Of a stretch of DNA of 64,000 nucleotides, positions 2,480-47,645 are shown piece by piece. The first letter of the stretch is position 1, and each line of letters opens with the position of its first letter. The stretch is from Clostridia bacterium (GTDB taxonomy: Bacteria; Bacillota; Clostridia; UBA1381; UBA9506), in NCBI GenBank assembly GCA_045652815.1, contig JAZOLH010000037.1, positions 691-64,690 of the forward strand. Direction: 5' to 3'. The translations under genes were made by a program, and so were the position numbers. A model generated the notes under the pieces. The model saw nothing but the letters and a program-made list of their open reading frames with translations. It was not told the origin of the DNA and searched no databases.

Positions 2480-2503
2480 TTTCCCTCTGTTTTACATAGA
2501 CTA
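2474..2503 (+). promoter_or_regulatory. Candidate mother-cell (sigmaE-type) promoter of the glg operon
   Basis: GTATAATT, 13 nt, CATAGACT(A) immediately upstream of glgB, resembling the sigmaE/K -10 CATA...T(A). The B. subtilis glgBCDAP operon is sigmaE-dependent. Confidence 0.35.
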
Positions 2504-2539
2504 TCGGTGTGTTTTATGACAGTAAAGGAAGATGATGAC

Positions 2540-5606: not shown

Positions 5607-5621
5607 AAAGGAGGCAATACG

Positions 5622-6728: not shown

Positions 6729-6730
6729 GG

Positions 6731-8152: not shown

Positions 8153-8216
8153 AACGGTACCGTTGCCCGCGACGGTGCAAAAAAGAAAGTATGCGGGCAG
8201 AAAGGCAAAGAAAACT

Positions 8217-10634
8217 ATGGCGTTATCGGAAAAAGAAATCCTGACCAAAGAACTGACGGATGTGCTTTTAAGGCGGTTTGGATGTGAGCCGAAAGAGGCC
8301 ACACAAATCCAGTTTTACAGAGCAGTTTGCGAAGTGGTGAAAAATCGATTGTCAGAAAAGCGAAGCCACTTTTCTGCCAAACGAAAAGAGCAGAACAAAA
8401 AGCGGGTTTACTATCTTTCGATGGAGTTTTTAACGGGTCCCTCACTGAAAAATCACGTGTTTCACTTGGGGCTAACAGAGCCTCTTTCTGAGGCGCTCAA
8501 TGGATTTGGCATCTCTTTTGAATCTCTGTGCAAGGCGGAGCCTGATGCGGGTTTAGGTAATGGCGGTTTGGGACGTTTGGCGTCTTGCTATCTGGACTCG
8601 ATGACCACCTGCGGTTATGCCTGCACGGGTTTTTCCATTCGCTATGAATTCGGCATTTTCAGGCAGAAGATTGTGGATGGTTGGCAGATGGAGTTTCCTG
8701 ATAACTGGTTAGAACGTGGCGATGTTTGGCTCACTCCTCGTTATGATGACGAAATCCGCATCCATTTCGGCGGTCGGGCGGAAGAATATTGGCAGGATGG
8801 TGAGCACAAAATTGCCTATCACGACCAAAATACCGTGGTGGCAGTGCCTTATGATATGCTGATTTCGGGCTATGATTCGGGCGCTGTAAACAAACTGGTG
8901 CTTTGGAGTGCGAAATCAGAAGACAGTTTGGATATGGATTTATTTTCCCGTGGGGAATATGCCAAGGCTATGGAACAAAATGCTATGGCAGAGGCGATTT
9001 CCAAGGTGCTGTATCCTGCCGATGACCATTATCGCGGCAAGGAACTCAGACTTAAGCAACAGTACCTTTTGGTGAGTGCATCTCTCCAAAGCATTTTAAA
9101 GGATTTCTTCAAAGAAGAAACGGATATTCACAAATTGCCAGAAAAAGTGGCGGTGCATATTAACGACACCCATCCCTCCCTGTGCGTGCCCGAACTGATG
9201 CGACTCCTTTTGGATGAGCATGGGCTCTGCTGGGAAGATGCCTGGGATATTTGTGGGAGGACGCTTTCCTACACCAACCACACCATTATGAGCGAGGCGC
9301 TGGAGGTTTGGCCGGTGTCTCTCTTTTCGTCCCTTTTGCCCCGTATGTATCAGATTGTTAAAGAGATTGACCGCCGCTTTCTTCTTGTTTTGCAGGAGAA
9401 ATATGGCGGTGATACGGGTAAAATCAACTATATGAAAATCCTGGAAAACGACAGGGTGAAAATGGCGAATCTATGCCTTGCTTGTTGCCACAAAGTCAAC
9501 GGTGTTTCGGCACTACACAGCAAGATTTTGCAGGAAGATGTAGTCCGCGATTTTCATCTGATTATGCCTGATAAATTTATGAATGTCACAAACGGGATTG
9601 CCTATCGCAGATGGCTTTGTCAGGCAAATCCTGAACTGACCGCGTTCCTTAAAGAACTCATTGGTGAAGGTTTTATGCATGATGCGGGAGAACTTGAAAA
9701 GTTAAAGGGTTTCGCAGGGGATAAAACGGTTTTAGATACCTTGCAGAAAATCAAACTGAAAAACAAGCTCAGGCTTTCTGACTATATCGGAGAAAAAGCG
9801 GGGATTTTAGTTGACCCTGCCTCTTTGTTTGATGTGCAGATTAAACGCCTGCACGAATATAAACGCCAGCTTTTAAACGCGCTCCACATTCTGTCTTTAT
9901 ACCACAGTTTGCTTGAACATCCCGAGCGGCAAATTCAGCCCCGTACCTTTATTTTCGGGGCAAAAGCTTCGCCCGGTTATGTGCTGGCTAAACAAACCAT
10001 CCGGCTGATTAACTGCATTGCAAAAGAGGTAAACAGTAACCCCATCACCCGCGACAGGCTCAGGGTTGTGTTCTTAGAAGACTATCGCGTATCTCTTGCC
10101 GAACTGATCATTCCTGCGGCAGAAATCTCCGAGCAGATTTCTGTGGCGGGGAAAGAGGCCTCGGGTACAGGCAATATGAAACTGATGATTAACGGGGCGG
10201 TGACTTTGGGTACCTTGGATGGTGCCAATGTGGAAATTCGTGATGCGGTTGGGGAGGAGAATATGTTTTTATTCGGTATGACTGCAGACGAGGTGGCGAA
10301 AAGAAAGAGAGCAGGCTACGAGCCCGGACGGGTGATGGAACAAGACCCCTTGGTGCGTCGTGCTGTTGAGTATCTGCAAAGAGCGCCTTTTGGCGCAGAA
10401 TTCCACGATTTAATCTGGTCGCTGACGGGTCACGGACAGGATGCCTATATGACCCTGGCGGACTTTTCCGATTATTGCCGCGCACAAGGTCAGGTGCAGG
10501 CGGTTTATGGCGATAGAATGCGCTTTAACAAAATGTCGTTGTTAAATATTGCGGGGGCGGGGATTTTCTCTGCCGACCGAAGTGTTAAAGAATATTGTGA
10601 TGCCATTTGGGGCGTTACACCTGTTCAAAACTAA
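8217..10634 (+). CDS. glgP: Glycogen/maltodextrin phosphorylase
   Basis: GT35 PLP site EASGTGNMKLMINGA. The ORF is open from TTG 8163; ATG 8217 gives about 805 aa, typical for the family. Confidence 0.92.
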   Translation: MALSEKEILTKELTDVLLRRFGCEPKEATQIQFYRAVCEVVKNRLSEKRSHFSAKRKEQNKKRVYYLSMEFLTGPSLKNHVFHLGLTEPLSEALNGFGISFESLCKAEPDAGLGNGGLGRLASCYLDSMTTCGYACTGFSIRYEFGIFRQKIVDGWQMEFPDNWLERGDVWLTPRYDDEIRIHFGGRAEEYWQDGEHKIAYHDQNTVVAVPYDMLISGYDSGAVNKLVLWSAKSEDSLDMDLFSRGEYAKAMEQNAMAEAISKVLYPADDHYRGKELRLKQQYLLVSASLQSILKDFFKEETDIHKLPEKVAVHINDTHPSLCVPELMRLLLDEHGLCWEDAWDICGRTLSYTNHTIMSEALEVWPVSLFSSLLPRMYQIVKEIDRRFLLVLQEKYGGDTGKINYMKILENDRVKMANLCLACCHKVNGVSALHSKILQEDVVRDFHLIMPDKFMNVTNGIAYRRWLCQANPELTAFLKELIGEGFMHDAGELEKLKGFAGDKTVLDTLQKIKLKNKLRLSDYIGEKAGILVDPASLFDVQIKRLHEYKRQLLNALHILSLYHSLLEHPERQIQPRTFIFGAKASPGYVLAKQTIRLINCIAKEVNSNPITRDRLRVVFLEDYRVSLAELIIPAAEISEQISVAGKEASGTGNMKLMINGAVTLGTLDGANVEIRDAVGEENMFLFGMTADEVAKRKRAGYEPGRVMEQDPLVRRAVEYLQRAPFGAEFHDLIWSLTGHGQDAYMTLADFSDYCRAQGQVQAVYGDRMRFNKMSLLNIAGAGIFSADRSVKEYCDAIWGVTPVQN

Positions 10635-10635
10635 A

Positions 10636-10665
10636 GTCACATTTTTGTGTCCCGAAGCATATAAT
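10636..10665 (+). promoter_or_regulatory. Candidate mother-cell sigma (E/K-type) promoter of yunB
   Basis: GTCAC, 17 nt, CATATAAT just after the glgP stop. yunB is sigmaE-controlled in B. subtilis. Confidence 0.3.
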
Positions 10666-10696
10666 GCTATATGATTGTATGCGGGGAGTGGATAGT

Positions 10697-11401
10697 ATGC
10701 GCTTGGGCACAAAGCAAACAATCCGTATCAGAAGCGGCAAACTTGGGCGAAAAAAGTTTTCGGGATTTTTGTTGTTATGCTTGATTGTATCCCTTGTTTC
10801 GGCAGGTGGATTGTATTTTTTGAAAGTGGTTAATCCGCTTTTGGTTCACCAGACCCAAAACCGAGCCGGCGTTTTGGCAGAACAGGCCATTCATAGGGCG
10901 GTTAACCGCATGTTTCAGAACGCTGAGGCGGAGGATTTTCTCTCGGTGTCAATGATGGCAGATGGCAGTGTTAGTCTCGCCGGTGCGGATATGGTGAAAC
11001 TCAATCAGTTAAAGGCAGAAGCATCTATGGCCATTCAGGAAGAAATTGATGCCCTTCATCAAACGAAAATTTCCATCCCCTTGGGGACTGTCAGCGGCTG
11101 TTCGCTTTTGTCGGGTTTAGGGCCTTATCTTCCCGTAGAACTGATGCCTTACGGTCGTGTTGTTGTGGATTTTATCAGCCGATTTACAGAGGCAGGCATT
11201 AACCAGACGAAACTGGAAATCAGCTTAAAAGCCAACTGTTTTGTTGGCTTTGTGTTGCCTACCACGAGGCAGTCTGCCAAGGTGGAAACGGAAGTGCCTC
11301 TGGTGCAAACGGTGATTGTGGGCAAGGTGCCCGATAACTATGTCAACATCGACCGTATGGGTGAAACTTTTGAGGGCGATGTGTTGGATATTGTGGGATA
11401 A
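10697..11401 (+). CDS. yunB: Sporulation protein YunB
   Basis: 234 aa with an N-terminal TM segment and YunB-like core (GINQTKLEISL...). GGGGAG RBS 8 nt before ATG 10697. Confidence 0.72.
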   Translation: MRLGTKQTIRIRSGKLGRKKFSGFLLLCLIVSLVSAGGLYFLKVVNPLLVHQTQNRAGVLAEQAIHRAVNRMFQNAEAEDFLSVSMMADGSVSLAGADMVKLNQLKAEASMAIQEEIDALHQTKISIPLGTVSGCSLLSGLGPYLPVELMPYGRVVVDFISRFTEAGINQTKLEISLKANCFVGFVLPTTRQSAKVETEVPLVQTVIVGKVPDNYVNIDRMGETFEGDVLDIVG

Positions 11402-21913: not shown

Positions 21914-21965
21914 AACAGTAGAGGAAAATAGTATTGTTGTCCACATATTTTAAAGGGTGATTGTT

Positions 21966-24900
21966 ATGAAAAGAAAGTTTTTCTGCTTTGTTAGTCTATG
22001 TCTTAGTTTTCTTATGATGCTATCTTTTGTGCCGATGGCGAGCGCAGAAACTGAGATGCAAGCGCAAGAAGTTTCTGTAACAGAACCAAACTGTTGCGAT
22101 GAAACGGTTTTTGTAAAAGGTCTTCTTTTAAATGCTATTTTAGAAGAGCAGGCAAGCATAGATTTGACTGTATTTTCGCTCACAGGAGAAGAAGCAGAGA
22201 TGCTTCTGCTTGATGTTGTAAACGAAAATGAAAACAGCATTAAAAGACTGGCAGATTACAGCATTTCTGCCGATGAAAACGGTCTTTTCATCTATTTTGA
22301 GTACGCTGAACCCACCGTTTCCTTTTTCGCCACCAGAGCGAACAACACAGAAATTGAAAAAGAAAAACAAAGAATCCTCTCCTGTGTTGATGAATCTATG
22401 TCTGATATGGAAAAAGCGCTGGTTGTGCACGATTATATGGTTTTGAATTATGAGTACGATGAGACCTATTCCATTTACAGCGCAGATGGTATGTTTGAAC
22501 ATAAAACGGGCGTTTGTCAGGCCTATGCAGAGGCATTTAAAGAAATTATGACGGAACTGGGGATTCCTTGCCAGCTTGCCAGCAGCAGAGCTATGAATCA
22601 TGCTTGGAATCTGGTTAAAATTGATGGTAGTTGGTACCACGTGGATGTTACCTGGGATGATCCCGTACCCGACAGGCTGGGCAGAGTCAGACACGTGTTC
22701 TTCCTGCTCAGTGATGATGCAATTTCCGACCCTGCCTATTACCGCAGACCTCATTATGATTGGGTGGCTTCCAATGCGGCAACCAATGACCGCTTCGACT
22801 ATTCCTTCTGGTATGATGTTGATAGCGCCATTGTCGCAGCAGAAGGAAACTGGTATTATATTAAACCCGACGACTATAACTATGACAGTAGTGGTTATAT
22901 TGTAAAGAAAAACATTGCAACTGAAGCGGAAACCAATCTGTACGAAATCGATACAGTGTGGAATGTATGGGATGAGCCCTATAGCTACTGGATTGGTTGC
23001 TTTTCCAGTTTGGGATTATATGAAGGCAGACTCTATTTCAACACCCCGCAGGAGATAAAGAGCATCACTCTCAGCGGAAGAAGTCCCAAAACAGTTTACG
23101 AACCAAACACATCAACAGGCTATATCTTCGGTTTCGTGTTAAATGGAACAACGATTACCTATGGTTTGTCAAAATCGCCTAATGATGGGATAGAAAGCAC
23201 AGGAAAGTGTACGGTTTCAGGTACAGCGGTTATTCCTGTGACAGGTGTTTCTCTGAATCAAACATCCGTTACCTTGCTGAAAGACGAAACGACAAGATTG
23301 ATCGCAACGGTTCGGCCGAGCAATGCAAGCAATAAGAAAGTTCTCTGGACTTCTTCCAACAAGAAGGTTGCAACCGTTGATGAAAACGGTGTTGTAACAG
23401 CGAAATCGGCAGGCATGGCAAACATCAGAGTTACCACGGAAGATGGCGATGCAACTGCACTTTGCAAAGTCACCGTTATGCGTAAAATGGATGTGGCAAT
23501 CGAAGGGGAAAGTGCAGTTTCTCTGGGTAAGACAATAAACTTAACAGGCTACGCATATTATGAAGAAAATGGCAGAATAGTGAAAACAAGCGATGCTATC
23601 GAATGGAGTAGTTCTGATGTGTCTGTTGCTACTGTTTCAGGTGGTAAGGTAACAGGCGTGGGTATTGGAACGGCCACAATCACAGCACGTATTGCGGGTA
23701 CCGATATTTATGAAGAATTTGAAGTGAGTGTTGCAGCACCTGTTACAAGTCTGAAATTTGCATCAACTAAAATGACGGCCTATGTTGGCAATCGCTTTTC
23801 ATTGTTCTATGAGTTAAATATAGCACCTTCTGAGCATACCGATACAATTGAATGGACATCATCTGATGAAACTGTTGCACGGGTCAACCAATACGGCGTT
23901 GTAACACCGATTGCAACAGGTACTGCCAAAATTACTGCAAAAGCTGTTGCGGGTAACAAAACCGCCACGGTGACCGTGACAGTTGCTCGCGAGCCGGAAG
24001 GCATCGTTATTGAAGGTGCTACAGCTGTTGCACAGGGCAAGAGCATCACCTTGAAAGCATATGCTTATTACGAAGAAAACGGTAAGGTTGTTAAGACGAA
24101 GGATACAATTAGTTGGATGAGTTCCGATCATTTTGTCGCAACCGTTTCTAATGGTAAGGTAACCGGTAAAAATGCCGGTATTGCCATTATTACAGCATAC
24201 CTTGCAGGTACAGACATAGAAGCAACCTTTGAAGTGAATGTTGCCGTTCCCGTTAAAACTCTGAAATTTGCATCTACCAAAGCAACGGTTTATGTGGGTC
24301 ATGAACTTGACCTTTCTGAAACCCTGACAGTTTCTCCTTTCGATAATACAGATGATATTATCTGGACATCTTCCAAGGAAAGTGTAGCCGTTGTTGACGA
24401 AAATGGTGTTGTAACACCGATTGCAACAGGTAGTGCTAAGATTACCGCAAAAGCTGTTGCTGGAGGTAAAACCGCATCTGTTACCGTTACAGTTGCTCGT
24501 GAGCCGGAAGGCATTGTGATTACCGGCGATTCTGCTGTTGCACAGGGTAAGAGCATCACCTTAAAAGCCTATGCTTATTATATGGAAAATGGCAAAGAAG
24601 TTAAGACGAAAGATGTTATCAGTTGGATGAGTTCTGATGAATCCGTTGCTACTGTTTCCAAAGGTAAGGTAACCGGTAAGGGTGCCGGCATTGCAACCAT
24701 TCGTGCATACATCGATGGCACTGAGATTGCAGCATCCTTTGATGTGAATGTTGCTGTTCCCGTTAAAACCTTGAAATTTGCATCTACCAAGGCGACTGTT
24801 TACGAAGACGGTGTTATCGACCTTTCTGAAACTCTGACAATTGCACCCTTTGACAACACAGATGACATCCTCTGGACGTCTTCTAACACAAGTGTTGCCA

Positions 24901-25523
24901 CCGTTGATGCAAACGGTGTTGTCACCGCAATCAGCAAAGGTACTGCTAAAATTACAGCTAATGCTGTTGCAGGTAAGAAAAAAGCGACAGTTACCGTGAC
25001 TGTTGCCCGTATGCCCGAAGGCATTGATGTGACGGGTAATAATGCACTGGCAGTTGGCAAGTATGTAACCTTAAAAGCGTATGCGTACTATGAAGAAAAC
25101 GGTAAGGTTGTTAAAACCAAAGATGTTATCCGTTGGGAATCCTCTGATGAAAGCGTTGCAACTGTTACCGATAAAGGTAAAGTAACTGCTAAAGGCGATG
25201 GTGTTGCCTATATCCGTGCCTATATCGCAGGAACAGGTGTTGAAGAAATTTTTGAAATGCATGTTGTTGTTCCGGCGAAAACCGTTAAACTGTCTTCCAC
25301 AAAACTGTCGGCTTCGGTTGGTGATGTTCTGGATTTAACAAACCTGCTGACCGTTACACCGGAAGAACATACCGATGTTATCATCTGGGCATCATCGAAA
25401 ACATCAGTGGCGACGGTGACGGAAGATGGCGTTGTGACCATTGTTGGCACCGGAACAGCCAAAATTACGGTTAAGGCTGTTGGCGGAAATAAATCTGCAT
25501 CGGTGACAGTTACGGTTAAATAA
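21966..25523 (+). CDS. Secreted transglutaminase-like cysteine protease-domain protein with nine Big_2 (bacterial Ig-like group 2) domains
   Basis: Signal peptide (MKRKFFCFVSLCLSFLMMLSFVPMASA). Cys-His-Asp core (GVCQAYAEAF...NHAWNLV...HVDVTWDD). One single Big_2 domain followed by four double-Big_2 units. No LPXTG, SLH or C-terminal TM segment. Confidence 0.85.
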   Translation: MKRKFFCFVSLCLSFLMMLSFVPMASAETEMQAQEVSVTEPNCCDETVFVKGLLLNAILEEQASIDLTVFSLTGEEAEMLLLDVVNENENSIKRLADYSISADENGLFIYFEYAEPTVSFFATRANNTEIEKEKQRILSCVDESMSDMEKALVVHDYMVLNYEYDETYSIYSADGMFEHKTGVCQAYAEAFKEIMTELGIPCQLASSRAMNHAWNLVKIDGSWYHVDVTWDDPVPDRLGRVRHVFFLLSDDAISDPAYYRRPHYDWVASNAATNDRFDYSFWYDVDSAIVAAEGNWYYIKPDDYNYDSSGYIVKKNIATEAETNLYEIDTVWNVWDEPYSYWIGCFSSLGLYEGRLYFNTPQEIKSITLSGRSPKTVYEPNTSTGYIFGFVLNGTTITYGLSKSPNDGIESTGKCTVSGTAVIPVTGVSLNQTSVTLLKDETTRLIATVRPSNASNKKVLWTSSNKKVATVDENGVVTAKSAGMANIRVTTEDGDATALCKVTVMRKMDVAIEGESAVSLGKTINLTGYAYYEENGRIVKTSDAIEWSSSDVSVATVSGGKVTGVGIGTATITARIAGTDIYEEFEVSVAAPVTSLKFASTKMTAYVGNRFSLFYELNIAPSEHTDTIEWTSSDETVARVNQYGVVTPIATGTAKITAKAVAGNKTATVTVTVAREPEGIVIEGATAVAQGKSITLKAYAYYEENGKVVKTKDTISWMSSDHFVATVSNGKVTGKNAGIAIITAYLAGTDIEATFEVNVAVPVKTLKFASTKATVYVGHELDLSETLTVSPFDNTDDIIWTSSKESVAVVDENGVVTPIATGSAKITAKAVAGGKTASVTVTVAREPEGIVITGDSAVAQGKSITLKAYAYYMENGKEVKTKDVISWMSSDESVATVSKGKVTGKGAGIATIRAYIDGTEIAASFDVNVAVPVKTLKFASTKATVYEDGVIDLSETLTIAPFDNTDDILWTSSNTSVATVDANGVVTAISKGTAKITANAVAGKKKATVTVTVARMPEGIDVTGNNALAVGKYVTLKAYAYYEENGKVVKTKDVIRWESSDESVATVTDKGKVTAKGDGVAYIRAYIAGTGVEEIFEMHVVVPAKTVKLSSTKLSASVGDVLDLTNLLTVTPEEHTDVIIWASSKTSVATVTEDGVVTIVGTGTAKITVKAVGGNKSASVTVTVK
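23478..25520 (+). repeat. Four in-frame tandem repeats of 510 bp (170 aa, two Big_2 domains each)
   Basis: Unit boundaries at 23478, 23988, 24498 and 25008, each exactly 510 nt apart. Units share strings such as REPEGIVI, AVAQGKSITLKAYAYY and NVAVPVKTLKFASTKATVY. Confidence 0.9.
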
Positions 25524-32833: not shown

Positions 32834-32968
32834 CCTTTTCTTTTTTGCAATGTCTCTATTTTACTACAAATAAAAACAAATTTCAAGGGGAGATAATTGT
32901 TGAAAAAAATGGCAAATGGTGGTATAATATAAAATAGGATATTCTTGAATTGAATTGGAGGGGCTATT

Positions 32969-33850
32969 ATGGCAAAAGAACTTTCAAAAGAAGCACTGAA
33001 AATCGTGAAGAAAATGCAGCAGAGCGAACTGACGGAAAGCGTGATTTATGCTGAAATCGCCAAGTTTGCCAAAGGTGATGAAAATAAAGAAACCTTGCTT
33101 CGTTTGGCAAGGGAAGAAAAGGCGCATTATGAAATCTGGAAGCGTTATACGGGCGTTGAAATGAAACCCGAAAAGCGCAAGGTTTTCAAATATAAATGGA
33201 TTGCCCGCATTTTAGGTTTTACCTTTGCGGTGAAACTGATGGAAAACGGTGAAACAAACGCCCAGTCAGAATATGAATTGCTGGCAAAAGAAGTGGAAGA
33301 AAGCGCTTCCATTCGCGCACAGGAAGAAGAGCACGAAAAAGCACTGCTTGAAATTCTGGATGAAGAAAGTTTGCAGTATGTGGGCAGTATGGTGCTGGGT
33401 ATGAATGATGCGCTGGTGGAACTGACAGGTTCTTTAGCAGGTTTTACCTTTGCTATGCAGAACACCCGCCTGATTGCTCTTGCCGGTCTTATTATGGGTA
33501 TTTCTGCCACATTTTCTATGGCGTCCAGTGAATTTTTGGCGGCAAAAAGTGAAGGCAGAACCGATGCCTTTAAGTCCTGTACTTACACGGGCGTTGCCTA
33601 CCTTGTGACTGTTGCACTTTTGGTGCTTCCGTATCTGCTTCTCGGCAACGAACAATATATGACCGCTCTTGCTGTGATGCTTTGCATCGTTGTTTTAATC
33701 ATCGCAGGATTTACATACTATATTTCTGTTGCTAAAAGCGAAAAATTCCGCCCCAGATTCTTGGAAATGTCCTTAATCAGCATCGGCGTTGCCATCGTTT
33801 CTTTCGGTGTTGGTATTTTAGCAAAGAAATTTTTAGGTGTTGAGTTATAA
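32969..33850 (+). CDS. Ferritin-like (rubrerythrin-type) domain fused to a VIT1/CCC1 iron/manganese transporter domain
   Basis: N-terminal ExxH ferritin-like helices (EEKAHYEIW, EEEHEKAL) and a C-terminal five-TM VIT1-like region. Confidence 0.75.
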   Translation: MAKELSKEALKIVKKMQQSELTESVIYAEIAKFAKGDENKETLLRLAREEKAHYEIWKRYTGVEMKPEKRKVFKYKWIARILGFTFAVKLMENGETNAQSEYELLAKEVEESASIRAQEEEHEKALLEILDEESLQYVGSMVLGMNDALVELTGSLAGFTFAMQNTRLIALAGLIMGISATFSMASSEFLAAKSEGRTDAFKSCTYTGVAYLVTVALLVLPYLLLGNEQYMTALAVMLCIVVLIIAGFTYYISVAKSEKFRPRFLEMSLISIGVAIVSFGVGILAKKFLGVEL

Positions 33851-34758
33851 TGCAGGAACTGTACCCCAATTATTATCATAAATTTAACTGTATTGCAGAC
33901 CGTTGCCGCCATTCTTGTTGCGTTGGTTGGGAAATTGATATAGATGCAGAAACTATGGCACGCTACGAGGCAATAGAGACGCCTATGGGCGATACAATCC
34001 GTAAGCACATTGAGGGAGAAGACCCCCACTTTATTTTAGGTCCGGGGGATAGATGCCCGTTTTTGCAGGAAGACGGTCTTTGCGAACTGATTATCGAATG
34101 TGGTGAAAATGTGCTTTGCGACATTTGCCGCCTGCATCCCCGTTTTCGTAATTTTTATGAAAATGCCGTGGAAACAGGTTTGGGTTTATGCTGTGAGGAA
34201 GCGGCGCGGATTATCCTGACGGAGCAGGAAAAGTTCAAGATTTCTCTCCCGCGGGATACCGACCTTTCGGAAGAGGCATTCTTTGCCATCCGTGATACGA
34301 TTTTTTACATCCTGCAGGAGCGCGAAAAAACCATCTACGACCGTTTTTGCTCTCTGGCAAAGAAGTTTGGCCTGTCCTTTTCGTTCTCGCTAGAAACCTT
34401 GCAAAAAACCTATCTTTCGCTGGAACGGTTGGATGAAGCGTGGACAGATTGTCTGACTACTTTAGATGGCTTTACTTTTGACGAAACAATCTTTCGGGAT
34501 GAGGCCTTTGCCATCCCCTTTGAGCAACTTTGTGTTTATTTCATCTTCCGTCATCTGACTGATGCAATGTGGGACGGAGAGTATGAAAAACGGGTACGCT
34601 TTGCCCTTGTAAGTTGTTATGTTATTGGCGCCCTTTGGGCAAACTGCAAACAAGAAAAAGGCACTCTGACTTTAGAGGATATGGTGGAAATTGTTCGGCT
34701 GTATTCTTCTGAAATCGAATATTCGGAAGAGAACACAGAAACACTAATGAATTTATAA
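33850..34758 (+). CDS. FliB-like (flagellin lysine-N-methylase family) Cys-cluster protein
   Basis: N-terminal YHKFNCIADRCRHSCCVGWEIDID cysteine cluster characteristic of the family. The start overlaps the VIT1 stop (TAATG). Confidence 0.6.
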   Translation: MQELYPNYYHKFNCIADRCRHSCCVGWEIDIDAETMARYEAIETPMGDTIRKHIEGEDPHFILGPGDRCPFLQEDGLCELIIECGENVLCDICRLHPRFRNFYENAVETGLGLCCEEAARIILTEQEKFKISLPRDTDLSEEAFFAIRDTIFYILQEREKTIYDRFCSLAKKFGLSFSFSLETLQKTYLSLERLDEAWTDCLTTLDGFTFDETIFRDEAFAIPFEQLCVYFIFRHLTDAMWDGEYEKRVRFALVSCYVIGALWANCKQEKGTLTLEDMVEIVRLYSSEIEYSEENTETLMNL

Positions 34759-34773
34759 ATTTAGGAGATAACC

Positions 34774-34992
34774 ATGGAAGAACTGATTAAAAAAATTAAT
34801 GCCCTTGCTAAAAAGTCAAGGGAAGAAGGTCTGACTGACGAAGAAAAAGAAGAACAGGCAAAACTTCGCGCGGCCTATATTCAAAAATTCCGTCAAGGGA
34901 TGGAAAACACCCTGAGCAACACCTACATTATGGATGAGCAGGGCAACAAAAAGAAAGTGGAAAAGAAAGGCGGCAACAAGTTTTTGTCGTAA
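34774..34992 (+). CDS. DUF896 (YnzC/UPF0291) family protein
   Basis: 72 aa (INALAKKSREEGLTDEEKEEQAKLRAAYIQKFR), closely YnzC-like. Confidence 0.8.
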   Translation: MEELIKKINALAKKSREEGLTDEEKEEQAKLRAAYIQKFRQGMENTLSNTYIMDEQGNKKKVEKKGGNKFLS

Positions 34993-35001
34993 GCGTTTGA
35001 A

Positions 35002-37626
35002 ATGAAGCGAATTGCTGTTGGCATTCTGGCTCACGTGGACGCAGGCAAAACAACCCTCTCTGAAGGTCTTTTATATACAGCGGGGGAGATTCGAAAGTTT
35101 GGTCGCGTGGATACCGGAGACACGTTTTTGGACACAAATGAAATCGAGCGCAAAAGAGGCATTACTGTTTTTTCAAAGCAGGCGGTGATCAGTCTGGAAG
35201 AAACTGTGATGACTCTTTTAGACACGCCCGGACACGTGGATTTTGCCGCAGAAGCAGAGCGTACACTTTCTGTTTTGGATTATGCGATTTTAGTCATCAG
35301 CGGAACCGATGGCATTCAAAGCCACACCAAAACTCTTTGGGATATGCTGGCAAAACACAATCTTCCTGTGTTTGTTTTTATAAATAAACTGGATTTAACC
35401 GGTAGCGATAAACAGCGCGTTATCAGCGAACTGAAAGCAGAATTCGGCGGCAATTTTGTTGATTTTACGGAGAAGACTGAAACTCTTTGTGATGAACTCT
35501 CCCTTTGCAGTGAAGCGCTGATGGAAGAGGCGCTGGAAGGTAAGATTACGGAGAAAAGCGTTGCTGAGGCGATCTGCGACCGTCATCTGTATCCTTGTTT
35601 TTCGGGGTCCGCACTGAAGATGGAGGGCGTCTCTTTCTTTTTAAAGGCCTTCGACCGCCTGACTTTGCCTGCCAAGGCCATGGCAATTTTTGGTGCGAAA
35701 GTGTTTAAAATCGGTCAGGACGACCGTGGCAACCGCCTGACGTTTATGAAAATCACGGGCGGTAGTCTGAAAGTGAAAAGCACGCTTGTAACCGATGGGG
35801 AAACAAGTGAAAAAGTCAATGAAATCCGCATTTATTCCGGCGAAAAATATAAAACTGAAGAGGAAGTGTTCCCCGGCACCGTTTGCGCTGTGACAGGTCC
35901 GAAACTGACAGCGGCAGGGCAGGGGCTTGGCTTTGAGAAAAACGCTTCTGCACTAACAGCAGAGCCGATTTTTACCTATCGGGTGATTCTGCCCGCAGGC
36001 GTTATGCCCTCGGTGGCTTTAGAAAATTTCCGTCAGCTAGAGCAGGAAGAAACCCAGCTGAAAGTCACTTGGAATGAGCAACTTGGCGAAATCCAAATCA
36101 GACTGATGGGTGAAATTCAACTTGAAATTTTAAAAGATTTAGTCAAAACTCGTTTCGGGATGGACGTGGAGTTTGAAGAAGGCCGCATTGTTTATAAAGA
36201 AACCATTGTCAACACTGTGGAGGGCGTGGGTCATTTTGAACCCCTGCGCCATTATGCAGAGGTGCATCTGCTTCTCGAGCCCTTGCCCGAAAACACGGGG
36301 ATGCAGTTTGAAATTGATTGCCCCGAGAGCGTTTTAGATAAAAACTGGCAACGACTTATCTTGACGCACTTAATGGAAAAGCAACATCTGGGCACTTTGA
36401 CAGGGTCGCCCATTACCGATATTAAAATCACCTTAAAATCAGGTGCGGCACACCAAAAACATACAGAGGGCGGCGATTTCCGTCAGGCGACTTACCGCGC
36501 TGTTCGTCAGGGTTTAATGCAGGCTCAGAGCGCTTTGCTTGAGCCATACTATGAATTTGTGATTGAAGTTCCTGCCGAAAACGTGGGCAAGGCCATGACA
36601 GACCTTGATATGTTGGGTGCACAGTTTTCCATCTCCCATTTGGGCGGTGATTTAACAAAAATCAAGGGCACTGCACCTGCCGAAGCCATCCGAAATTACG
36701 GACAACAAATGATTGGGTATACCCACGGAAAAGGCAGAATTACCTGCAAATTCTGTGGTTATGGCAAGTGTAAAAATGCTGAAAGCATTATTGAATCCAT
36801 CGGTTATAATGCCGAAGCCGATGTTTTAAACACCCCCGATTCTGTGTTCTGCAGCCACGGGGCAGGGTTTACGGTGAAATGGGACGAAGTGCCACAGCAC
36901 ATGCACTTAGAGAGCATTTTAAAGCCCAAAAAGGCAGAAGAAAAGGAACGGGTAGTTCGTTCCTCTTCCATCCACGCAGGCGACGATGAACTCCTTGCCA
37001 TTTTTGAAAAAACCTATGGTAAGGTGGAAACAAAACTGCCTTCCCGTGCTATGCACACTAAGAAGAATATGCCGGAGAATAAGAGACATCACGCGGTGAA
37101 ACGTTTTGATAAAGACTATCTGCTCATTGATGGTTATAATATGATTTTCGCTTGGGAGAGTTTGAAAAAAATCGCCCAAAGCAGTTTAGAAGATGCGCGG
37201 CGTGAACTCATCGACCGCATTTCTGTTTACAAAGTCTTTAAAGGCTGGGAGGTTATCATTGTTTTTGATGCCTATAAGGTAAAAGGCAACATCGGTGAGG
37301 TTGAAAAGGAAAAGGGCATCACCATTGTGTACACAAAAGAATCCCAAACTGCCGATGCTTATATCGAGAAAGCCACCCGTGAACTGACAAAACAGTATAA
37401 CGTAACCGTTGCCACCTCTGATGCCTTAGAGCAGTTAATCATCTTCGGCAGCGGTGCCTTCCGCATGCCTGCAAGGCATCTCGAGGAGGAAGTGTTGCAG
37501 GTGGAAAAAGGCGTGCGGCAGATGGTGGAAACCTATAACTTAGAAACCGAAAGTTCGGGCTTTTTAAAAGTGTTAGAAGAAAAACTGGCGGGCTGGAAAG
37601 AGAAAAACCGCCCCGAAATGAAATAA
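35002..37626 (+). CDS. Tet(M)/EF-G-like translational GTPase fused to a C-terminal Rae1/YacP-type NYN ribonuclease domain
   Basis: G motifs AHVDAGKTT, DTPGH and NKLD, with Tet(M)-like N-terminal similarity. C-terminal LLIDGYN, VFDAY, TADAYIE and ATSDALEQ match YacP/Rae1 catalytic motifs. A single 874-codon frame. Confidence 0.85.
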   Translation: MKRIAVGILAHVDAGKTTLSEGLLYTAGEIRKFGRVDTGDTFLDTNEIERKRGITVFSKQAVISLEETVMTLLDTPGHVDFAAEAERTLSVLDYAILVISGTDGIQSHTKTLWDMLAKHNLPVFVFINKLDLTGSDKQRVISELKAEFGGNFVDFTEKTETLCDELSLCSEALMEEALEGKITEKSVAEAICDRHLYPCFSGSALKMEGVSFFLKAFDRLTLPAKAMAIFGAKVFKIGQDDRGNRLTFMKITGGSLKVKSTLVTDGETSEKVNEIRIYSGEKYKTEEEVFPGTVCAVTGPKLTAAGQGLGFEKNASALTAEPIFTYRVILPAGVMPSVALENFRQLEQEETQLKVTWNEQLGEIQIRLMGEIQLEILKDLVKTRFGMDVEFEEGRIVYKETIVNTVEGVGHFEPLRHYAEVHLLLEPLPENTGMQFEIDCPESVLDKNWQRLILTHLMEKQHLGTLTGSPITDIKITLKSGAAHQKHTEGGDFRQATYRAVRQGLMQAQSALLEPYYEFVIEVPAENVGKAMTDLDMLGAQFSISHLGGDLTKIKGTAPAEAIRNYGQQMIGYTHGKGRITCKFCGYGKCKNAESIIESIGYNAEADVLNTPDSVFCSHGAGFTVKWDEVPQHMHLESILKPKKAEEKERVVRSSSIHAGDDELLAIFEKTYGKVETKLPSRAMHTKKNMPENKRHHAVKRFDKDYLLIDGYNMIFAWESLKKIAQSSLEDARRELIDRISVYKVFKGWEVIIVFDAYKVKGNIGEVEKEKGITIVYTKESQTADAYIEKATRELTKQYNVTVATSDALEQLIIFGSGAFRMPARHLEEEVLQVEKGVRQMVETYNLETESSGFLKVLEEKLAGWKEKNRPEMK

Positions 37627-37639
37627 ACAGGAGATACAA

Positions 37640-39193
37640 ATGAGTATTTTAAATGCAGAAAACATCAGCCACAGTTTTGGTGGCAGACAAATTTTAGAAG
37701 ATGCAAGTTTCCGCTTGCTCAAAGGGGAGCACATTGGCTTAATTGGTGCTAATGGTGAGGGAAAATCCACTTTCCTGAAGATTATCACAGGTGAAATGCA
37801 CCCCGAACAGGGTAAGGTGGAATGGTGCCGCCACGTGACCTATGGTTACCTTGACCAGTATTCTTCACTGGAAGCTGGCAAAACCATCCGCGATGTGCTT
37901 CGTGATGCTTTTTCCCACCTTTCCGAACTGGAAGCAGAGATGATTGCCATTTATGATAAAATGGCAGAAGCAAGCGAAGAAGAACTTGCCGATATGATGG
38001 AAGAAGTGGGCGAAATGCAGGAAATTTTGGATTCCTCCGGCTACTATACCATCGACACCAAAATCTCGGAATATGCCAACGGTTTAGGTCTCGGTGAAAT
38101 CGGTCTTGACCGTGATGTAACGGAACTTTCAGGCGGACAGAGAGCCAAAGTTTTGCTTGCTAAAGTGCTTCTTGAAAACCCCATGATTCTGATTTTGGAC
38201 GAGCCCACGAACTTTTTGGATGAAAACCACATTAACTGGCTGACGGAGTTTTTGCAGAACTACGAAAATGCCTTTATTCTGGTATCTCACGATATGCCTT
38301 TCTTAACTAAGGTTACCAACGTGATTTATCACCTTGAAAATACGGTTTTAACCCGCTACAAAGGTACTTACGAAGACTTTTTGCGTATGCACGATTTAAA
38401 GAAACAGCAGCTGGAACAGGCCTTTAAAAAGCAGCAGAAAAAGATTGCTGATTTAGAGGATTTTGTGGCCCGAAACAAAGCCCGTGCCGCAACAGCAACG
38501 CTGGCACGTTCCCGCCAAAAAGAACTTGACAAAATGGAGCGTATCGAACTGGCGCCCGAGAAAATCAAGCCCACATTTAACTTTCAGGCAGACCGTGCAC
38601 CGGGCAGAATTGTTATTGAGGCCAAGGGTTTGGTCATTGGTTACGATTCACCCCTGACAAAGAAAATTGACATTCAGATTGAGCGCAACAAAAAGATTGC
38701 CATCCGCGGTGTGAATGGCTTGGGTAAATCCACGCTTTTAAAAACCTTACTTAAAATGATTCCTGCCCTAGAGGGCGAGATTCATCACGACCAGTTTATC
38801 AATGTTGGCTATTTTGAGCAGGAGGAAAGCACCTCCGATAAAACCGCTTTGCAGGAATTCTGGGATGAATTCCCTGCCATGACCAATGCGGAAGTTCGTG
38901 CGGCACTTGCAAAATGCGGTCTGACAACAGAGCATATCACAACACAGATGCGCGTGCTCTCCGGTGGCGAAAATGCGAAAGTACGTCTTTGCAAAATTAT
39001 GCAAAAGCCTGCTAACATCTTGGTTTTGGACGAACCGACGAACCACCTTGATATTGTGGCAAAAGAAGAACTGGCTAAAGCCATTCGCGAGTTCCGTGGC
39101 ACAGTCCTTTTGGTTTGCCACGAAGCCGAATTTTATCAGGGCGTTGTGGATGAAATCTGGGATGTATCTGATTGGAGCACAAAAATTGTTTAA
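37640..39193 (+). CDS. ABC-F family ATPase (no TMD; ribosome-associated translation factor / antibiotic-protection family)
   Basis: Two NBDs (GANGEGKST / LSGGQRAK / ILDEPTNFLD; GVNGLGKST / LSGGENAK / VLDEPTNHLD) joined by a charged linker. 517 aa. 13 nt downstream of the GTPase-NYN gene. Confidence 0.9.
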   Translation: MSILNAENISHSFGGRQILEDASFRLLKGEHIGLIGANGEGKSTFLKIITGEMHPEQGKVEWCRHVTYGYLDQYSSLEAGKTIRDVLRDAFSHLSELEAEMIAIYDKMAEASEEELADMMEEVGEMQEILDSSGYYTIDTKISEYANGLGLGEIGLDRDVTELSGGQRAKVLLAKVLLENPMILILDEPTNFLDENHINWLTEFLQNYENAFILVSHDMPFLTKVTNVIYHLENTVLTRYKGTYEDFLRMHDLKKQQLEQAFKKQQKKIADLEDFVARNKARAATATLARSRQKELDKMERIELAPEKIKPTFNFQADRAPGRIVIEAKGLVIGYDSPLTKKIDIQIERNKKIAIRGVNGLGKSTLLKTLLKMIPALEGEIHHDQFINVGYFEQEESTSDKTALQEFWDEFPAMTNAEVRAALAKCGLTTEHITTQMRVLSGGENAKVRLCKIMQKPANILVLDEPTNHLDIVAKEELAKAIREFRGTVLLVCHEAEFYQGVVDEIWDVSDWSTKIV

Positions 39194-39227
39194 AAAGAAA
39201 AAGCCTACCGTTTGGTAGGCTTTTTTA
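39194..39227. terminator. Bidirectional intrinsic terminator (ABC-F / rlmN-like)
   Basis: Stem AAGCCTACC, loop gttt, stem GGTAGGCTT, with flanking A- and T-runs. Confidence 0.85.
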
Positions 39228-40241
39228 ATTTTCATATGCAGAAGAAAGTTGCCCGCAGGCGGCATTCATATCGCCGCCAAATTCTCGGCGGACGGTAACA
39301 TTAACGCCCCGCCTTTTTAAAATATCAAAAAAAGCGGCGATACGCTCTTTGGTGCTGGCGCAAAAATCAGCCGAACGGGTTTGGTTATAGGGAATCAGAT
39401 TTACATAGCAGTTAAAACCCGAAAGAAGAGTCGCCAGTTCCTCGGCGCAGGCATCGGAATCGTTCACATCCTGAATCATAATGTAGGCAAAGGTAACCTT
39501 TTTATTGCTTCTTTCGGCATAGAGTTTTGCCGCGTCAATCAGATCGCTGATGGGGTATGCCTTGTTGATGGGCATCAGCTTGCTTCTGAGTTCGTCATTG
39601 GGTGCGTGGAGACTGATGGCAAGACTGTTAAAGGCCTCACGAGAGGCGTATTCAATAATTTTCGGGGTGATGCCGCTGGTGGAAATGGTAACGTGGCGGG
39701 CAGCAATGGCAATGCCCGGCTGGGCGGTTATGATATCAATAAAGTCCATTACGTTGTCATAGTTATCAAAGGGCTCGCCGATGCCCATCAGCACCACGTG
39801 GGAGATGGGAAACTTAAGTTTATCCCGCAGGTAAAGAACCTGAGCCACCATTTCGCCTGCAGAGAGATTGCGGACTTTTTTGAGTTTGCCGCTTTCGCAA
39901 AAAGCACAGTCCATATTGCATCCCACCTGTGTGGAAACACAAACACCGTTGCCGTAATCGTGTTTCATCAAAACGGTCTCGATGGTGCAACCGTCAGACA
40001 GGCGGAACAAAAACTTTTCCGTATCATCACTTTCGGCGGTTTTGATGAGCGAAAGGGCATCAAAGGTAAAGTCCTGTGCCAGTTTTTCACAGATGGCAGG
40101 AGACAGGGTTTTGATGTCTGAAAAGGATGTTAACTTGTCTTCATAAATGGCTTTAAAAACGATTTTTGCCTTGGCGGGATTCTCCCCAAAAGAGCGGAAA
40201 TAATCCTCGAGTTTCGGCATCGTCATGTCGTAAATATTCAT
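39225..40241 (-). CDS. RlmN/Cfr-family radical SAM 23S rRNA A2503 methyltransferase
   Basis: CNMDCAFC radical-SAM cluster, SLHAPNDELRSKLMPIN, and C-terminal ACGQL. AGAGGAAC RBS before ATG 40241. The ORF-track start at 40406 is rejected. Confidence 0.85.
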   Translation of the reverse strand: MNIYDMTMPKLEDYFRSFGENPAKAKIVFKAIYEDKLTSFSDIKTLSPAICEKLAQDFTFDALSLIKTAESDDTEKFLFRLSDGCTIETVLMKHDYGNGVCVSTQVGCNMDCAFCESGKLKKVRNLSAGEMVAQVLYLRDKLKFPISHVVLMGIGEPFDNYDNVMDFIDIITAQPGIAIAARHVTISTSGITPKIIEYASREAFNSLAISLHAPNDELRSKLMPINKAYPISDLIDAAKLYAERSNKKVTFAYIMIQDVNDSDACAEELATLLSGFNCYVNLIPYNQTRSADFCASTKERIAAFFDILKRRGVNVTVRREFGGDMNAACGQLSSAYEN

Positions 40242-40398
40242 AGCGGTTCCTCTTAAAATGCAAGTTACAAGGTCTATTATACCGCAAAAATCCCACTCTG
40301 TAAAGTGAGAGAAACAGTAAAATATATTGTCATTTTCTGTCGAATATGGTATACTAAAAGATAAGAAGAATAAATAACATCTGACAAGGAGGGGAAAT

Positions 40399-41238
40399 AT
40401 GTTCAAAAAAGTAATTGCTTTAGTGATGACGGTGATGCTGGCATTATGTTCAACCGGCGTTTATGCTGTAGATTCTTACGGTGGCTACGATATCCCCATT
40501 GATATTGATATTAACGGAAGTTTTATTAAGTGTGTAGAAAAGCCGATTTTGATTGATGGCACAACATATATCCCTTTGCGCGCTTTCTCCGATGCTATTG
40601 GCGGCGTGGTTGGATGGGATGAAAAAGAAAATGCCGCTAAGATGGAAAAAGACGGTCATACCTTTGTGTTCTGTCCCGAAAAAAACTATTGCCTTATCGA
40701 TGGCGCACTGAAAGAACATCCCTCCGTTATCTATAAAGACCTGACCTTTATTCCCGTCAGAGCTGTGTCTGAAACTTTAGGTTATAACGTTAAATGGGAT
40801 GGTTTTTACCTGACGGTTAAGATTGAGGCGCCGAATGTGACTGTTCCGCAGGAATGCAGGGATGATTCTTATACCTATGAAGACGTTCTGTACCTTGGAA
40901 AAATTATTCAGATTGAATGTGGATATGAATCTTTTAACGTTAAATTGGGTGTTGGCGGTACTGTTTTTAATCGCGTTGGATCATCAAGTTTCCCAAACAC
41001 CGTTAAAGACGTTATTTTTGATACAAGGTATGGCATTCAGTTCCCGCCGGTACATACGGATATGATTAACAGAACGCCCTCTGCGGAGAGTATCAGCGCC
41101 GCAAAATGCGTGCTGAACGGTGTTAATATCGTGGGCAATTCGCTGTATTTTATCGATACAAAACGTGCGGCATCTTCCTGGGCTCACAACAACAGACCTC
41201 ATCATGCCGATATAGATGGAATGTCTTTTTATGAGTGA
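40399..41238 (+). CDS. Secreted copper-amine-oxidase-N-like domain + SleB/CwlJ-type cell wall hydrolase
   Basis: Signal peptide. Two IPLRA/IPVRA stalk repeats. C-terminal Hydrolase_2-like region (GKIIQIECGYES...VFNRV...YFID). Confidence 0.75.
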   Translation: MFKKVIALVMTVMLALCSTGVYAVDSYGGYDIPIDIDINGSFIKCVEKPILIDGTTYIPLRAFSDAIGGVVGWDEKENAAKMEKDGHTFVFCPEKNYCLIDGALKEHPSVIYKDLTFIPVRAVSETLGYNVKWDGFYLTVKIEAPNVTVPQECRDDSYTYEDVLYLGKIIQIECGYESFNVKLGVGGTVFNRVGSSSFPNTVKDVIFDTRYGIQFPPVHTDMINRTPSAESISAAKCVLNGVNIVGNSLYFIDTKRAASSWAHNNRPHHADIDGMSFYE

Positions 41239-47569: not shown

Positions 47570-47645
47570 TGGAGCTGGTGGCAGGAATTGAACCTGTAAC
47601 CTGCTGATTACAAATCAGCTGCTCTGCCTATTGAGCTACACCAGC
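47570..47645 (-). tRNA. tRNA-Thr (anticodon UGU), CCA encoded
   Basis: Manual cloverleaf: acceptor GCTGGTG/CACCAGC, D arm GCTC-AATAGGCA-GAGC, anticodon arm GCTGA-TTTGTAA-TCAGC, T loop TTCAATT, discriminator T, then CCA. One A-C mismatch at pair 49:65. Confidence 0.9.

Follow-up and report, generated by a model that had tools for sequence, protein, structure and literature searches.

The Rae1 (YacP) endoribonuclease of Bacillus subtilis was formerly modelled as cutting messenger RNA (mRNA) in the ribosomal A site, a model since withdrawn by its own laboratory, and the cut is now placed ~12 nucleotides (nt) upstream of the A site, on collided ribosomes. Rae1 acting on collided ribosomes makes substrates for transfer-messenger RNA (tmRNA) and thereby feeds tmRNA rescue (PMC13622287). 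The direct experiments on Rae1 all show mRNA cleavage that is dependent on translation and on reading frame (PMC10351889 and PMC13622287 among them). According to a 2026 CART preprint, how Rae1 recognizes collided ribosomes is unknown and there is no structure of ribosome-bound Rae1, for which transient binding is given as the reason. Genes of the YacP family share an operon with mrnC and a ribosomal RNA (rRNA) methyltransferase gene in ~300 genomes of Firmicutes, and a function in the processing of rRNA or transfer RNA (tRNA) was the first to be predicted (PMC5499597, PMC4342817). Fusions of a TetM-like GTPase to an NYN_YacP domain have already been reported in Clostridia (Atkinson 2015, PMC4342817; Matelska 2017, PMC5499597); these surveys listed the architecture only (ten species in 2015), took the GTPase to be a Tet protein and contained no functional test. 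Here, one such fusion gene was investigated by computational analysis in a 64,000-nt stretch, called the window below, of contig JAZOLH010000037.1 from a Clostridia bacterium (GCA_045652815.1). All coordinates are positions within this window.

An earlier note on this DNA, made from the letters of the sequence, had drawn attention to the gene and had known of no characterized example. Full-text literature searches, which did not cover every Rae1 paper, found no functional study of the fusion, and the CART preprint does not mention it, but the architecture itself was already present in both surveys. The gene is a further member of a catalogued and functionally uncharacterized family, and its novelty is smaller than was claimed. 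What is shown here in addition to the surveys is that the family is much larger, that it is distinct from Tet(M) and Tet(O), and that it has unfused orthologues in Lactobacillaceae.

The list of open reading frames and the translation agree on one uninterrupted frame of 874 codons, and no in-frame start was found in either of them 5' of position 35002. The domains identified along the protein are as follows.

35002..37626, forward strand: whole fusion gene, 874 amino acids plus stop (stop included), from the reading-frame list, the translation, Pfam and full-length orthologues
35002..35661, forward strand: G domain (residues 1–220), with P-loop D13–T17, switch-I T55, switch-II DTPGH with H78, NKLD at 128–131 and no G' insertion
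35662..36177, forward strand: EF-G-like domains II (residues 221–320) and III (residues 321–392), from Pfam EF-G_D2 and EFG_III and the AlphaFold2 model
36178..36531, forward strand: domain IV (residues 393–510), Pfam EFG_IV, with tip loops EGVGHFEPLRHYAEVH (406–421) and GAAHQKHTEGGDFR (481–494)
36532..36777, forward strand: domain V (residues 511–592), Pfam EFG_C, E 2.6e-15
36778..36936, forward strand: post-domain-V mini-domain (residues 593–645), a helix, a beta-hairpin with DSVFCSHGAGFTVKW and a short helix, at a predicted local distance difference test score (pLDDT) >90
36937..37113, forward strand: flexible basic linker (residues 646–704), enclosing a conserved short helix, DELLAIFEKTYGK (662–674; 36985–37023)
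37114..37560, forward strand: Rae1/YacP-type NYN endoribonuclease domain (residues 705–853), with D710, D756, D785 and D807 plus N713, T778 and Q811
37561..37623, forward strand: C-terminal helix and tail (residues 854–874), weakly conserved, from the AlphaFold2 model

Pfam placed six domains on the 874-residue protein, all of them above their gathering thresholds: GTP_EFTU at residues 3–220 (E 5.6e-47), EF-G_D2 at 232–307, EFG_III at 343–392, EFG_IV at 394–509 (E 4.8e-17), EFG_C at 512–592 and NYN_YacP (PF05991) at 707–853, the last with an E of 2.6e-48 and 164.6 bits against a cut-off of 24.6 (profile positions 1–149 of 166). The motifs of the GTPase part are GILAHVDAGKTTL at residues 7–19, RGITV at 52–56, LLDTPGHVDF at 72–81 and FINKLD at 126–131; those of the nuclease part are DYLLIDGYNMIFAW (D710), IIVFDAY (D756), QTADAYIE (D785) and VATSDALEQ (D807). 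On all of these points the earlier note read the gene correctly: the single frame, the quoted motifs and their positions, the order of GTP_EFTU, EFG_IV, EFG_C and NYN_YacP on one protein, and a Lys/Glu-rich linker, which has a low pLDDT and holds 17 Lys plus Arg and 11 Asp plus Glu in the region 637–704. The genuineness of the fusion and the retention of the catalytic aspartates, on which the note had also depended, were upheld by the searches described below.

To assess the spread of the architecture, relatives were collected in three ways. A scan of one genome per GTDB species yielded 183 stretches coding for a relative, of which the best 80 were kept as loci; a collection of 5.8 billion proteins was searched and the 120 closest proteins were examined; and one representative per 50%-identity cluster was searched, with the best 150 matches examined. 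All 120 closest proteins carried PF05991 and the EF-G domains together (64–100% identity, 862–930 amino acids, at least 98% query coverage). The best 80 genome loci matched the query from residue 1 to ~830–870, barring a few that were cut by a contig end, and the best 150 cluster representatives all scored at least 630 bits, nearly all being 830–1000 amino acids long with both parts matched. Among the carriers in the 80 loci, Anaerotruncus colihominis DSM 17241 (complete genome) and an isolate of Ruminococcus are cultured strains, and others are metagenome-assembled genomes assigned to Blautia, Acetatifactor, Pseudoflavonifractor, Dysosmobacter, Faecousia, Congzhengia and Acutalibacteraceae. 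The fused relatives carry the names Oscillospiraceae, Ruminococcaceae or Clostridia, and divergence within the family is deep, with 34–75% identity over several families of Clostridia. Of the short hits inspected, three that lack the NYN domain and might have been unfused forms (P0256, P0257 and P0259, 616–719 amino acids) stop in the middle of a conserved segment and were rejected as truncated gene calls.

The domain order and the fusion as a single protein are confirmed by these searches. That two adjacent genes had been joined by an assembly error or a frameshift is exceedingly improbable, because the identical architecture recurs across the closest proteins, the species-representative loci and the cluster representatives; hundreds of assemblies made independently show the same continuous form, some of them being complete genomes of cultured strains, and the linker bears a conserved motif of its own. 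The family to which the fusion protein belongs is large, conserved and inherited vertically in Clostridia of the gut.

The nuclease part resembles Rae1 closely. The NYN domain is 40% identical to B. subtilis Rae1 (5MQ8/5MQ9) over Rae1 residues 2–165 (phmmer E 1e-28) and 52% identical to a stand-alone NYN protein of C. difficile. Conservation was assessed in an alignment of 193 family members and in a more diverse set of 101 sequences (A1). D710, N713, D756, D785, D807 and Q811 were invariant in the 193 sequences, and the 101-sequence set agreed. D710 is equivalent to D7 of B. subtilis Rae1, D756 to D53, D785 to D81 and D807 to D104, and the double substitution D7N D81N is the published catalytic-dead form of Rae1 (PMC10351889). 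The NYN domain probably has the same chemistry as Rae1 and the same kind of substrate.

The GTPase part was similarly conserved. The translational GTPase motifs AHVDAGKTT, RGIT, DTPGH and NKLD are all present and invariant or nearly so; K16, T17, T55, D74, K129 and D131 are conserved wherever the column holds a residue in the 193 sequences, while H78, the switch-II catalytic His, is kept in 192 of them and N128 in 189. Both catalytic centres of the fusion family therefore look active, as judged from their residues. Domain IV is the most conserved region of the protein, with a mean conservation of 0.85 compared with 0.66–0.73 for the other folded regions, and its tip-loop residues are 98–100% conserved save E489 (177 Glu and 16 Asp, n=193). 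Loop III follows the family pattern GAAHxKHTEGGDFR, and neither loop I nor loop III is like that of Tet(M) or Tet(O). Compared with its Tet(M)/Tet(O) equivalent, loop I lacks two residues and differs in sequence. In loop III, L505–P513 of Tet(M) (LYYSPVSTP) aligns with AAHQKHTEG, so that Y506-Y507-S508-P509-V510 is replaced by A483-H484-Q485-K486-H487. H484, K486 and H487 are each kept in at least 191 of the 193 sequences, and K486, which aligns with P509 of Tet(M), is Lys in 191. In Tet(M), loop III carries S508 and P509 (PMC8161019, PMC4750697), and Pro509 occupies the tetracycline site (PMC8161019).

These observations bear on whether the protein could be a tetracycline ribosomal protection protein, whose GTPase would free the 30S subunit of tetracycline and whose nuclease would be a second, accessory resistance activity. 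A resistance function with an added RNase was Atkinson's suggestion in 2015 (PMC4342817), and several orthologues are named as resistance proteins by NCBI. The best NCBIfam model is indeed tet_protect, at 412.6 bits, but the score is about half of the cut-off of 775, and the remaining models are further below theirs: 274 bits against 1100 for TetM/W/O/S, 271 against 1425 for Tet(Q) and 294 against 900 for Otr(A). The EF-G model TIGR00484 also fell short, at 263.5 bits against 659.4. The PDB sequences that match best are those of Tet(O) and Tet(M), with which the GTPase aligns in one stretch, up to residue 588, the G' insertion being absent as it is in the Tet proteins; with EF-G it aligns in two stretches, split at 150/171. 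The scores themselves are nearly tied, at 232 bits for Tet(O), 226 for Tet(M) and 221 for EF-G of T. thermophilus, and identity to Tet(O) is 29%. The earlier description of this part as following Tet(M)/Tet(O) closely was thus overstated.

The exchange of Tet(M) Y506–V510 for the highly conserved A483–H487, together with the shorter and different loop I, argues against resistance. Alanine substitutions in the Tet(M) domain IV loop remain active, and loop conformation outweighs loop sequence in Tet(M) (PMC4750697); the comparison of loops therefore lowers the resistance reading without excluding it, since the Tet(M) loop tolerates such substitutions. Housekeeping genes of the chromosome surround the gene, no mobile-element context was found in the 64-kb window, and the deep divergence of the family across several families of Clostridia favours an old resident gene over a recently spread resistance gene. 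Taken together, a tetracycline-protection role is considered improbable; judged by its sequence, the GTPase is no true tetracycline-protection protein, and its subfamily stands apart from Tet(M)/Tet(O). The label 'TetM/TetW/TetO/TetS family tetracycline resistance ribosomal protection protein' is attached to many members of the family, yet these score under the curated thresholds. Because Tet-named members fail these thresholds, tet genes may be over-counted in resistome surveys of gut metagenomes in which such names are taken at face value.

Evidence that the GTPase forms a lineage of its own came from proteins without the nuclease. A tblastn search of plasmid records identified a 644-residue protein on megaplasmids of Ligilactobacillus salivarius which is 45% identical to residues 1–651 of the fusion protein. 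Loop I and the mini-domain after domain V are as in the fusion protein, and the sequence ends exactly where the linker of the fused proteins starts. The 120 closest relatives of this unfused GTPase were mostly 640–665 amino acids long (the few shorter ones being truncated calls) and lacked PF05991. They are found on multi-megabase contigs and in complete genomes of Companilactobacillus, Levilactobacillus and Paucilactobacillus, and also in Pediococcus and Lactiplantibacillus. Their annotations are inconsistent, ranging over 'translation factor GTPase family protein', 'elongation factor G', GTP-binding protein and 'TetM family' (e.g. WP_324177469.1, Ligilactobacillus salivarius). Mean identity between fused and unfused proteins is 45%, the same as the mean among fused proteins, and both groups are ~29% identical to Tet(M)/Tet(O); fused and unfused proteins alike fall under the NCBIfam cut-offs. 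Because the identity between the two forms equals that within the fused form, and because both stand equally far from the Tet proteins and fail the cut-offs, the sequences place the GTPase in a distinct, unnamed subfamily which exists with and without the nuclease, the unfused form being chromosomal in Lactobacillaceae. We did not find this subfamily described in the literature searched. In the Lactobacillaceae, Latilactobacillus curvatus at least has a stand-alone Rae1 homologue.

Several features of the unfused loci were noted. On an L. salivarius megaplasmid (NZ_CP117984.1, L081:5402-7920), the GTPase gene divergently adjoins a copy of rpsN (S14) and a gene for a 'putative metal homeostasis protein', with insertion sequence elements at either side of the locus. 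RsgA and HflX are ribosome-associated GTPases; in Levilactobacillus an RsgA-like GTPase gene lies directly 3' of the unfused gene, and in Companilactobacillus an HflX gene lies ~6 kb upstream (L083:10236-11309, L085:3035-4180, L087:525-1820).

The AlphaFold2 model, built from the 101-sequence alignment, had a mean pLDDT of 87.6, and the five GTPase domains and the NYN region 705–845 were confident. Ribosome-bound EF-G structures matched the model in a Foldseek search of the PDB (E ~1e-52), which gave nothing further on the mini-domain or on the placement of the NYN domain. The mini-domain (593–645) lies beyond the region that can be aligned with Tet(M)/Tet(O), has conserved residues and is common to fused and unfused forms; it may bind a metal or serve as a surface for interactions. 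A zinc site made of C590, C617, H619 and H635 was considered and not upheld, as these residues are only 77–94% conserved in the diverse set A1, whereas in closer relatives they are 95–100% conserved. The linker is rich in Lys, Glu, Arg and Pro, and its length varies from 59 to 98 amino acids across the family. Its pLDDT is <50 at 646–661 and 672–698, with a helix at 662–672. Within this helix (DELLAIFEKTYGK) E663 and I667 are ~90% conserved, amid a linker that is otherwise poorly conserved and disordered. Because the linker is disordered and variable in length, the model portrays the nuclease as held on a flexible leash and not packed on the GTPase.

The reading which we hold with slightly more confidence than doubt, on these sequence features, is that the protein is a GTPase-docked, tethered mRNA endonuclease which would act at stalled or collided ribosomes. 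The GTP-bound GTPase module would dock at the factor-binding site of a ribosome that is unable to proceed, and domain IV would reach the decoding centre of that blocked ribosome. Ribosomes awaiting translocation are bound by EF-G-like factors, and those whose A site is free by Tet(M). The target might be a stalled ribosome of the latter kind, in a Tet-like mode, or a collided trailing ribosome held before translocation, in an EF-G-like mode. The tethered NYN domain would then cut mRNA next to the docked ribosome, most plausibly in the exposed part of it that separates the stalled from the trailing ribosome, where free Rae1 cuts in B. subtilis. The cut would yield a truncated mRNA for tmRNA rescue and decay, and GTP hydrolysis would free the factor from the ribosome. 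The fusion would in this way hard-wire a recruitment to the ribosome that free Rae1 gets only transiently. This reading is supported by the conservation of both active sites, the Rae1-like NYN domain, the EF-G fold, the near-invariant domain IV tip, the disordered tether, the housekeeping character of the gene and the lack of a conserved operon. The earlier note had likewise proposed an mRNA nuclease delivered by a GTPase; the architecture, the genuine fusion and the conserved catalytic centres bear out that part of its proposal, but its premise, that Rae1 cutting in the A site is established knowledge, is outdated now that the cut is placed upstream on collided ribosomes.

Several points weigh against a tethered mRNA endonuclease. 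A factor in its binding site sits on the side of the ribosome where the A site lies and mRNA enters, yet the Rae1 cut maps 5' of the stalled ribosome; because the two lie on opposite sides, the protein would have to bind the trailing ribosome or its linker would have to reach far. The AlphaFold2 model is silent on the position of the NYN domain relative to the ribosome. No NYN gene was found beside the unfused GTPase in two Lactobacillaceae genomes. Lastly, Rae1 has been linked to rRNA- and tRNA-processing genes, a link never disproved (PMC5499597), and an rRNA substrate is allowed. With regard to the first of these points, the geometry of the collided pair is relevant. Since the mRNA entry side of the trailing ribosome faces the 5' edge of the stalled ribosome, a factor bound to the trailing ribosome could present the nuclease at the stretch that Rae1 cuts, and docking of this kind could reconcile the fusion with the revised Rae1 model.

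The last of these points leads to a different function, that of a ribosome biogenesis or turnover factor, in which the GTPase would dock on subunits that are immature, idle or damaged and the substrate of the NYN domain would be rRNA or tRNA in place of mRNA. Other translational GTPase paralogues, such as BipA and LepA, act in subunit assembly. An RsgA-like gene follows the unfused Levilactobacillus orthologue, rlmN and ABC-F genes lie near the fusion gene, and the YacP operon with mrnC and an rRNA methyltransferase was the ground of the early prediction of rRNA or tRNA processing (PMC5499597, PMC4342817). These neighbourhood hints are not conserved, however, and the direct Rae1 experiments, all of which gave translation- and frame-dependent mRNA cleavage, speak for another substrate. 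The conserved tip of domain IV also fits contact with the decoding centre of a complete, mRNA-loaded ribosome. We regard a biogenesis or turnover role as unlikely, although it carries more weight than the resistance role discussed above.

The neighbourhood of the fusion gene was compared across the 80 loci. The features adjoining it in the window are as follows.

34774..34992, forward strand: DUF896 gene (Pfam DUF896), ending 9 nt before the fusion ATG; kept only in locus L001
37640..39193, forward strand: ABC-F ATPase gene, starting 13 nt past the fusion stop; NCBIfam NF000355 ('ribosomal protection-like ABC-F'), 393 bits against a cut-off of 380
39197..39226, no strand assigned: strong bidirectional terminator-like hairpin between the ABC-F gene and the convergent rlmN, a 13-bp stem with a T-run on both strands; pattern match only
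39225-40406, reverse strand: RlmN-type radical-SAM rRNA/tRNA methyltransferase; TIGR00048, 376 bits against a cut-off of 290, and under the Cfr cut-offs

A conserved DUF896/ABC-F/RlmN operon was rejected, as tblastn of the neighbours detected this arrangement in only one of the 80 loci, that of the closest relative (L001, 81% identity). De novo clustering of all neighbours found no neighbour family in more than 8 of the 80 loci. Those that recurred were an ABC exporter, an AraC-type regulator, ABC-F (6 loci) and GreA (4 Lachnospiraceae loci). At 6 of the 80 loci an ABC-F gene is present no more than 5 kb from the fusion gene, and a direct downstream orthologue is found only in L001; the proximity is perhaps slightly above chance, and ABC-F is not a conserved partner. 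The GreA-like gene, for a transcription elongation factor, lies immediately 3' on the same strand in L059, L066, L072 and L075 (Blautia/Acetatifactor labels, Lachnospiraceae). In the window, there is no obvious Shine-Dalgarno sequence between DUF896 and the fusion ATG, and the 9-nt gap without one suggests that the two genes may be translationally coupled. The only strong promoter-like site on the forward strand here is at 32900-32928, upstream of a VIT1-like gene, and the transcription unit may run from 32969 to 39193. Between these, at 33850-34758 (forward strand), a 302-residue protein has no Pfam match and matches NCBIfam FliB (flagellin lysine-N-methylase) at 203 bits against 85, over the first half of the profile only.

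The wider window holds a glycogen operon (1382-11401; glgB, glgC, glgD, glgA and phosphorylase) flanked by the sporulation genes ylbJ and yunB, a 1188-residue protein (21957-25523, forward strand) with a transglutaminase-like core and many Big_2 Ig-like repeats, which is probably a surface protein, and a single tRNA-Thr(TGT) gene (47570-47645, reverse strand). It also holds a 2-oxoacid dehydrogenase complex, shikimate genes and an AddA-like helicase. The GC content is even, with no island-like composition, and no second NYN or GTPase paralogue was found within the 64 kb. The window represents ordinary chromosomal DNA from a spore-forming clostridial bacterium, a housekeeping setting.

This setting is pertinent to a further possibility, which the earlier note had raised, that of a toxin-like or anti-phage effector which would halt translation by cutting ribosome-bound mRNA when triggered, as in abortive infection. 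In Agathobacter rectalis (NZ_CP143948.1, L082:4310-7775) a 933-residue fused orthologue, annotated as TetM-family, adjoins a BrnT/CopG toxin–antitoxin pair, and the authors of PMC13622287 speculate on Rae1 action against phage transcripts. Against this, PADLOC gave no match, no family member was found on viral contigs, and there was no recurring neighbour, immunity gene or defence-island context in the 80 loci. The distribution is like that of a core gene and the composition is normal. The abortive-infection idea thus found no backing in the matches, the contigs, the composition or the neighbourhood, and a defence function is highly improbable; a mobile or defence origin was rejected on the absence of viral contigs and PADLOC matches and on the normal GC content. 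The A. rectalis orthologue has an apparent extra insertion of ~25 amino acids in its G domain, and the 252-kb 'plasmid' record that carries it bears housekeeping genes (methionyl aminopeptidase and a GatB/YqeY protein).

A broader proposal may be put forward tentatively, as a possibility that we doubt more than we believe: that the unnamed GTPase subfamily is a dedicated ribosome-docking partner of Rae1-type nucleases, fused to them in Clostridia and working with free Rae1 in Lactobacillaceae, and not a tetracycline-resistance family. If so, it would represent a bacterial step of mRNA cleavage, delivered by a GTPase, in the rescue of collided ribosomes, and it would reveal the ribosomal site from which Rae1 works. 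A Rae1-type domain welded to a GTPase of the factor-binding site is a clue to the site at which Rae1 acts, and bears on the question of how Rae1 finds collided ribosomes. A GTPase-locked, nuclease-dead form of the fusion might stay on ribosomes long enough for cryo-electron microscopy, and the unfused Lactobacillaceae orthologues are a candidate partner of Rae1 in genetically tractable bacteria.

Among known systems, the TetM-like/NYN_YacP fusions of Clostridia have the identical architecture and come from the same taxon, and the present gene is one more of them. The unfused translational GTPases of Lactobacillaceae differ in having no NYN domain and in carrying the loop III variant ASNVHSVGGDFR. 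With Rae1 the fusion shares the equivalents of D7, N10, D53, T74, D81, D104 and Q108. Rae1, however, is a free protein of ~170 amino acids (181 residues in the PDB chains) that binds the ribosome transiently, whereas here the domain forms the C-terminus of an 874-residue GTPase; rae1 also sits in a cysS-mrnC-rlmB(yacO)-yacP operon, and none of those genes is near the fusion gene. Tet(M) and Tet(O) (3J9Y, 4V6V) are likewise five-domain, EF-G-like GTPases without a G' insert and are the best sequence matches in the PDB, but the fusion GTPase is only 29% identical, scores under the curated cut-offs and has changed loops I and III in domain IV. The short C-terminal extension helix of Tet(M) (PMC4750697) is replaced by the mini-domain, linker and nuclease. 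EF-G has the same overall fold and the same GTPase motifs, including the catalytic His, and differs in possessing the G' subdomain and in its domain IV loops. Finally, SmrB of E. coli and Cue2 and NONU-1 of eukaryotes are collision-dependent mRNA endonucleases that the fusion would resemble in the way it works and in that alone, for they have the SMR fold in place of NYN and are recruited through the disome interface or ubiquitin and not by a GTPase module.

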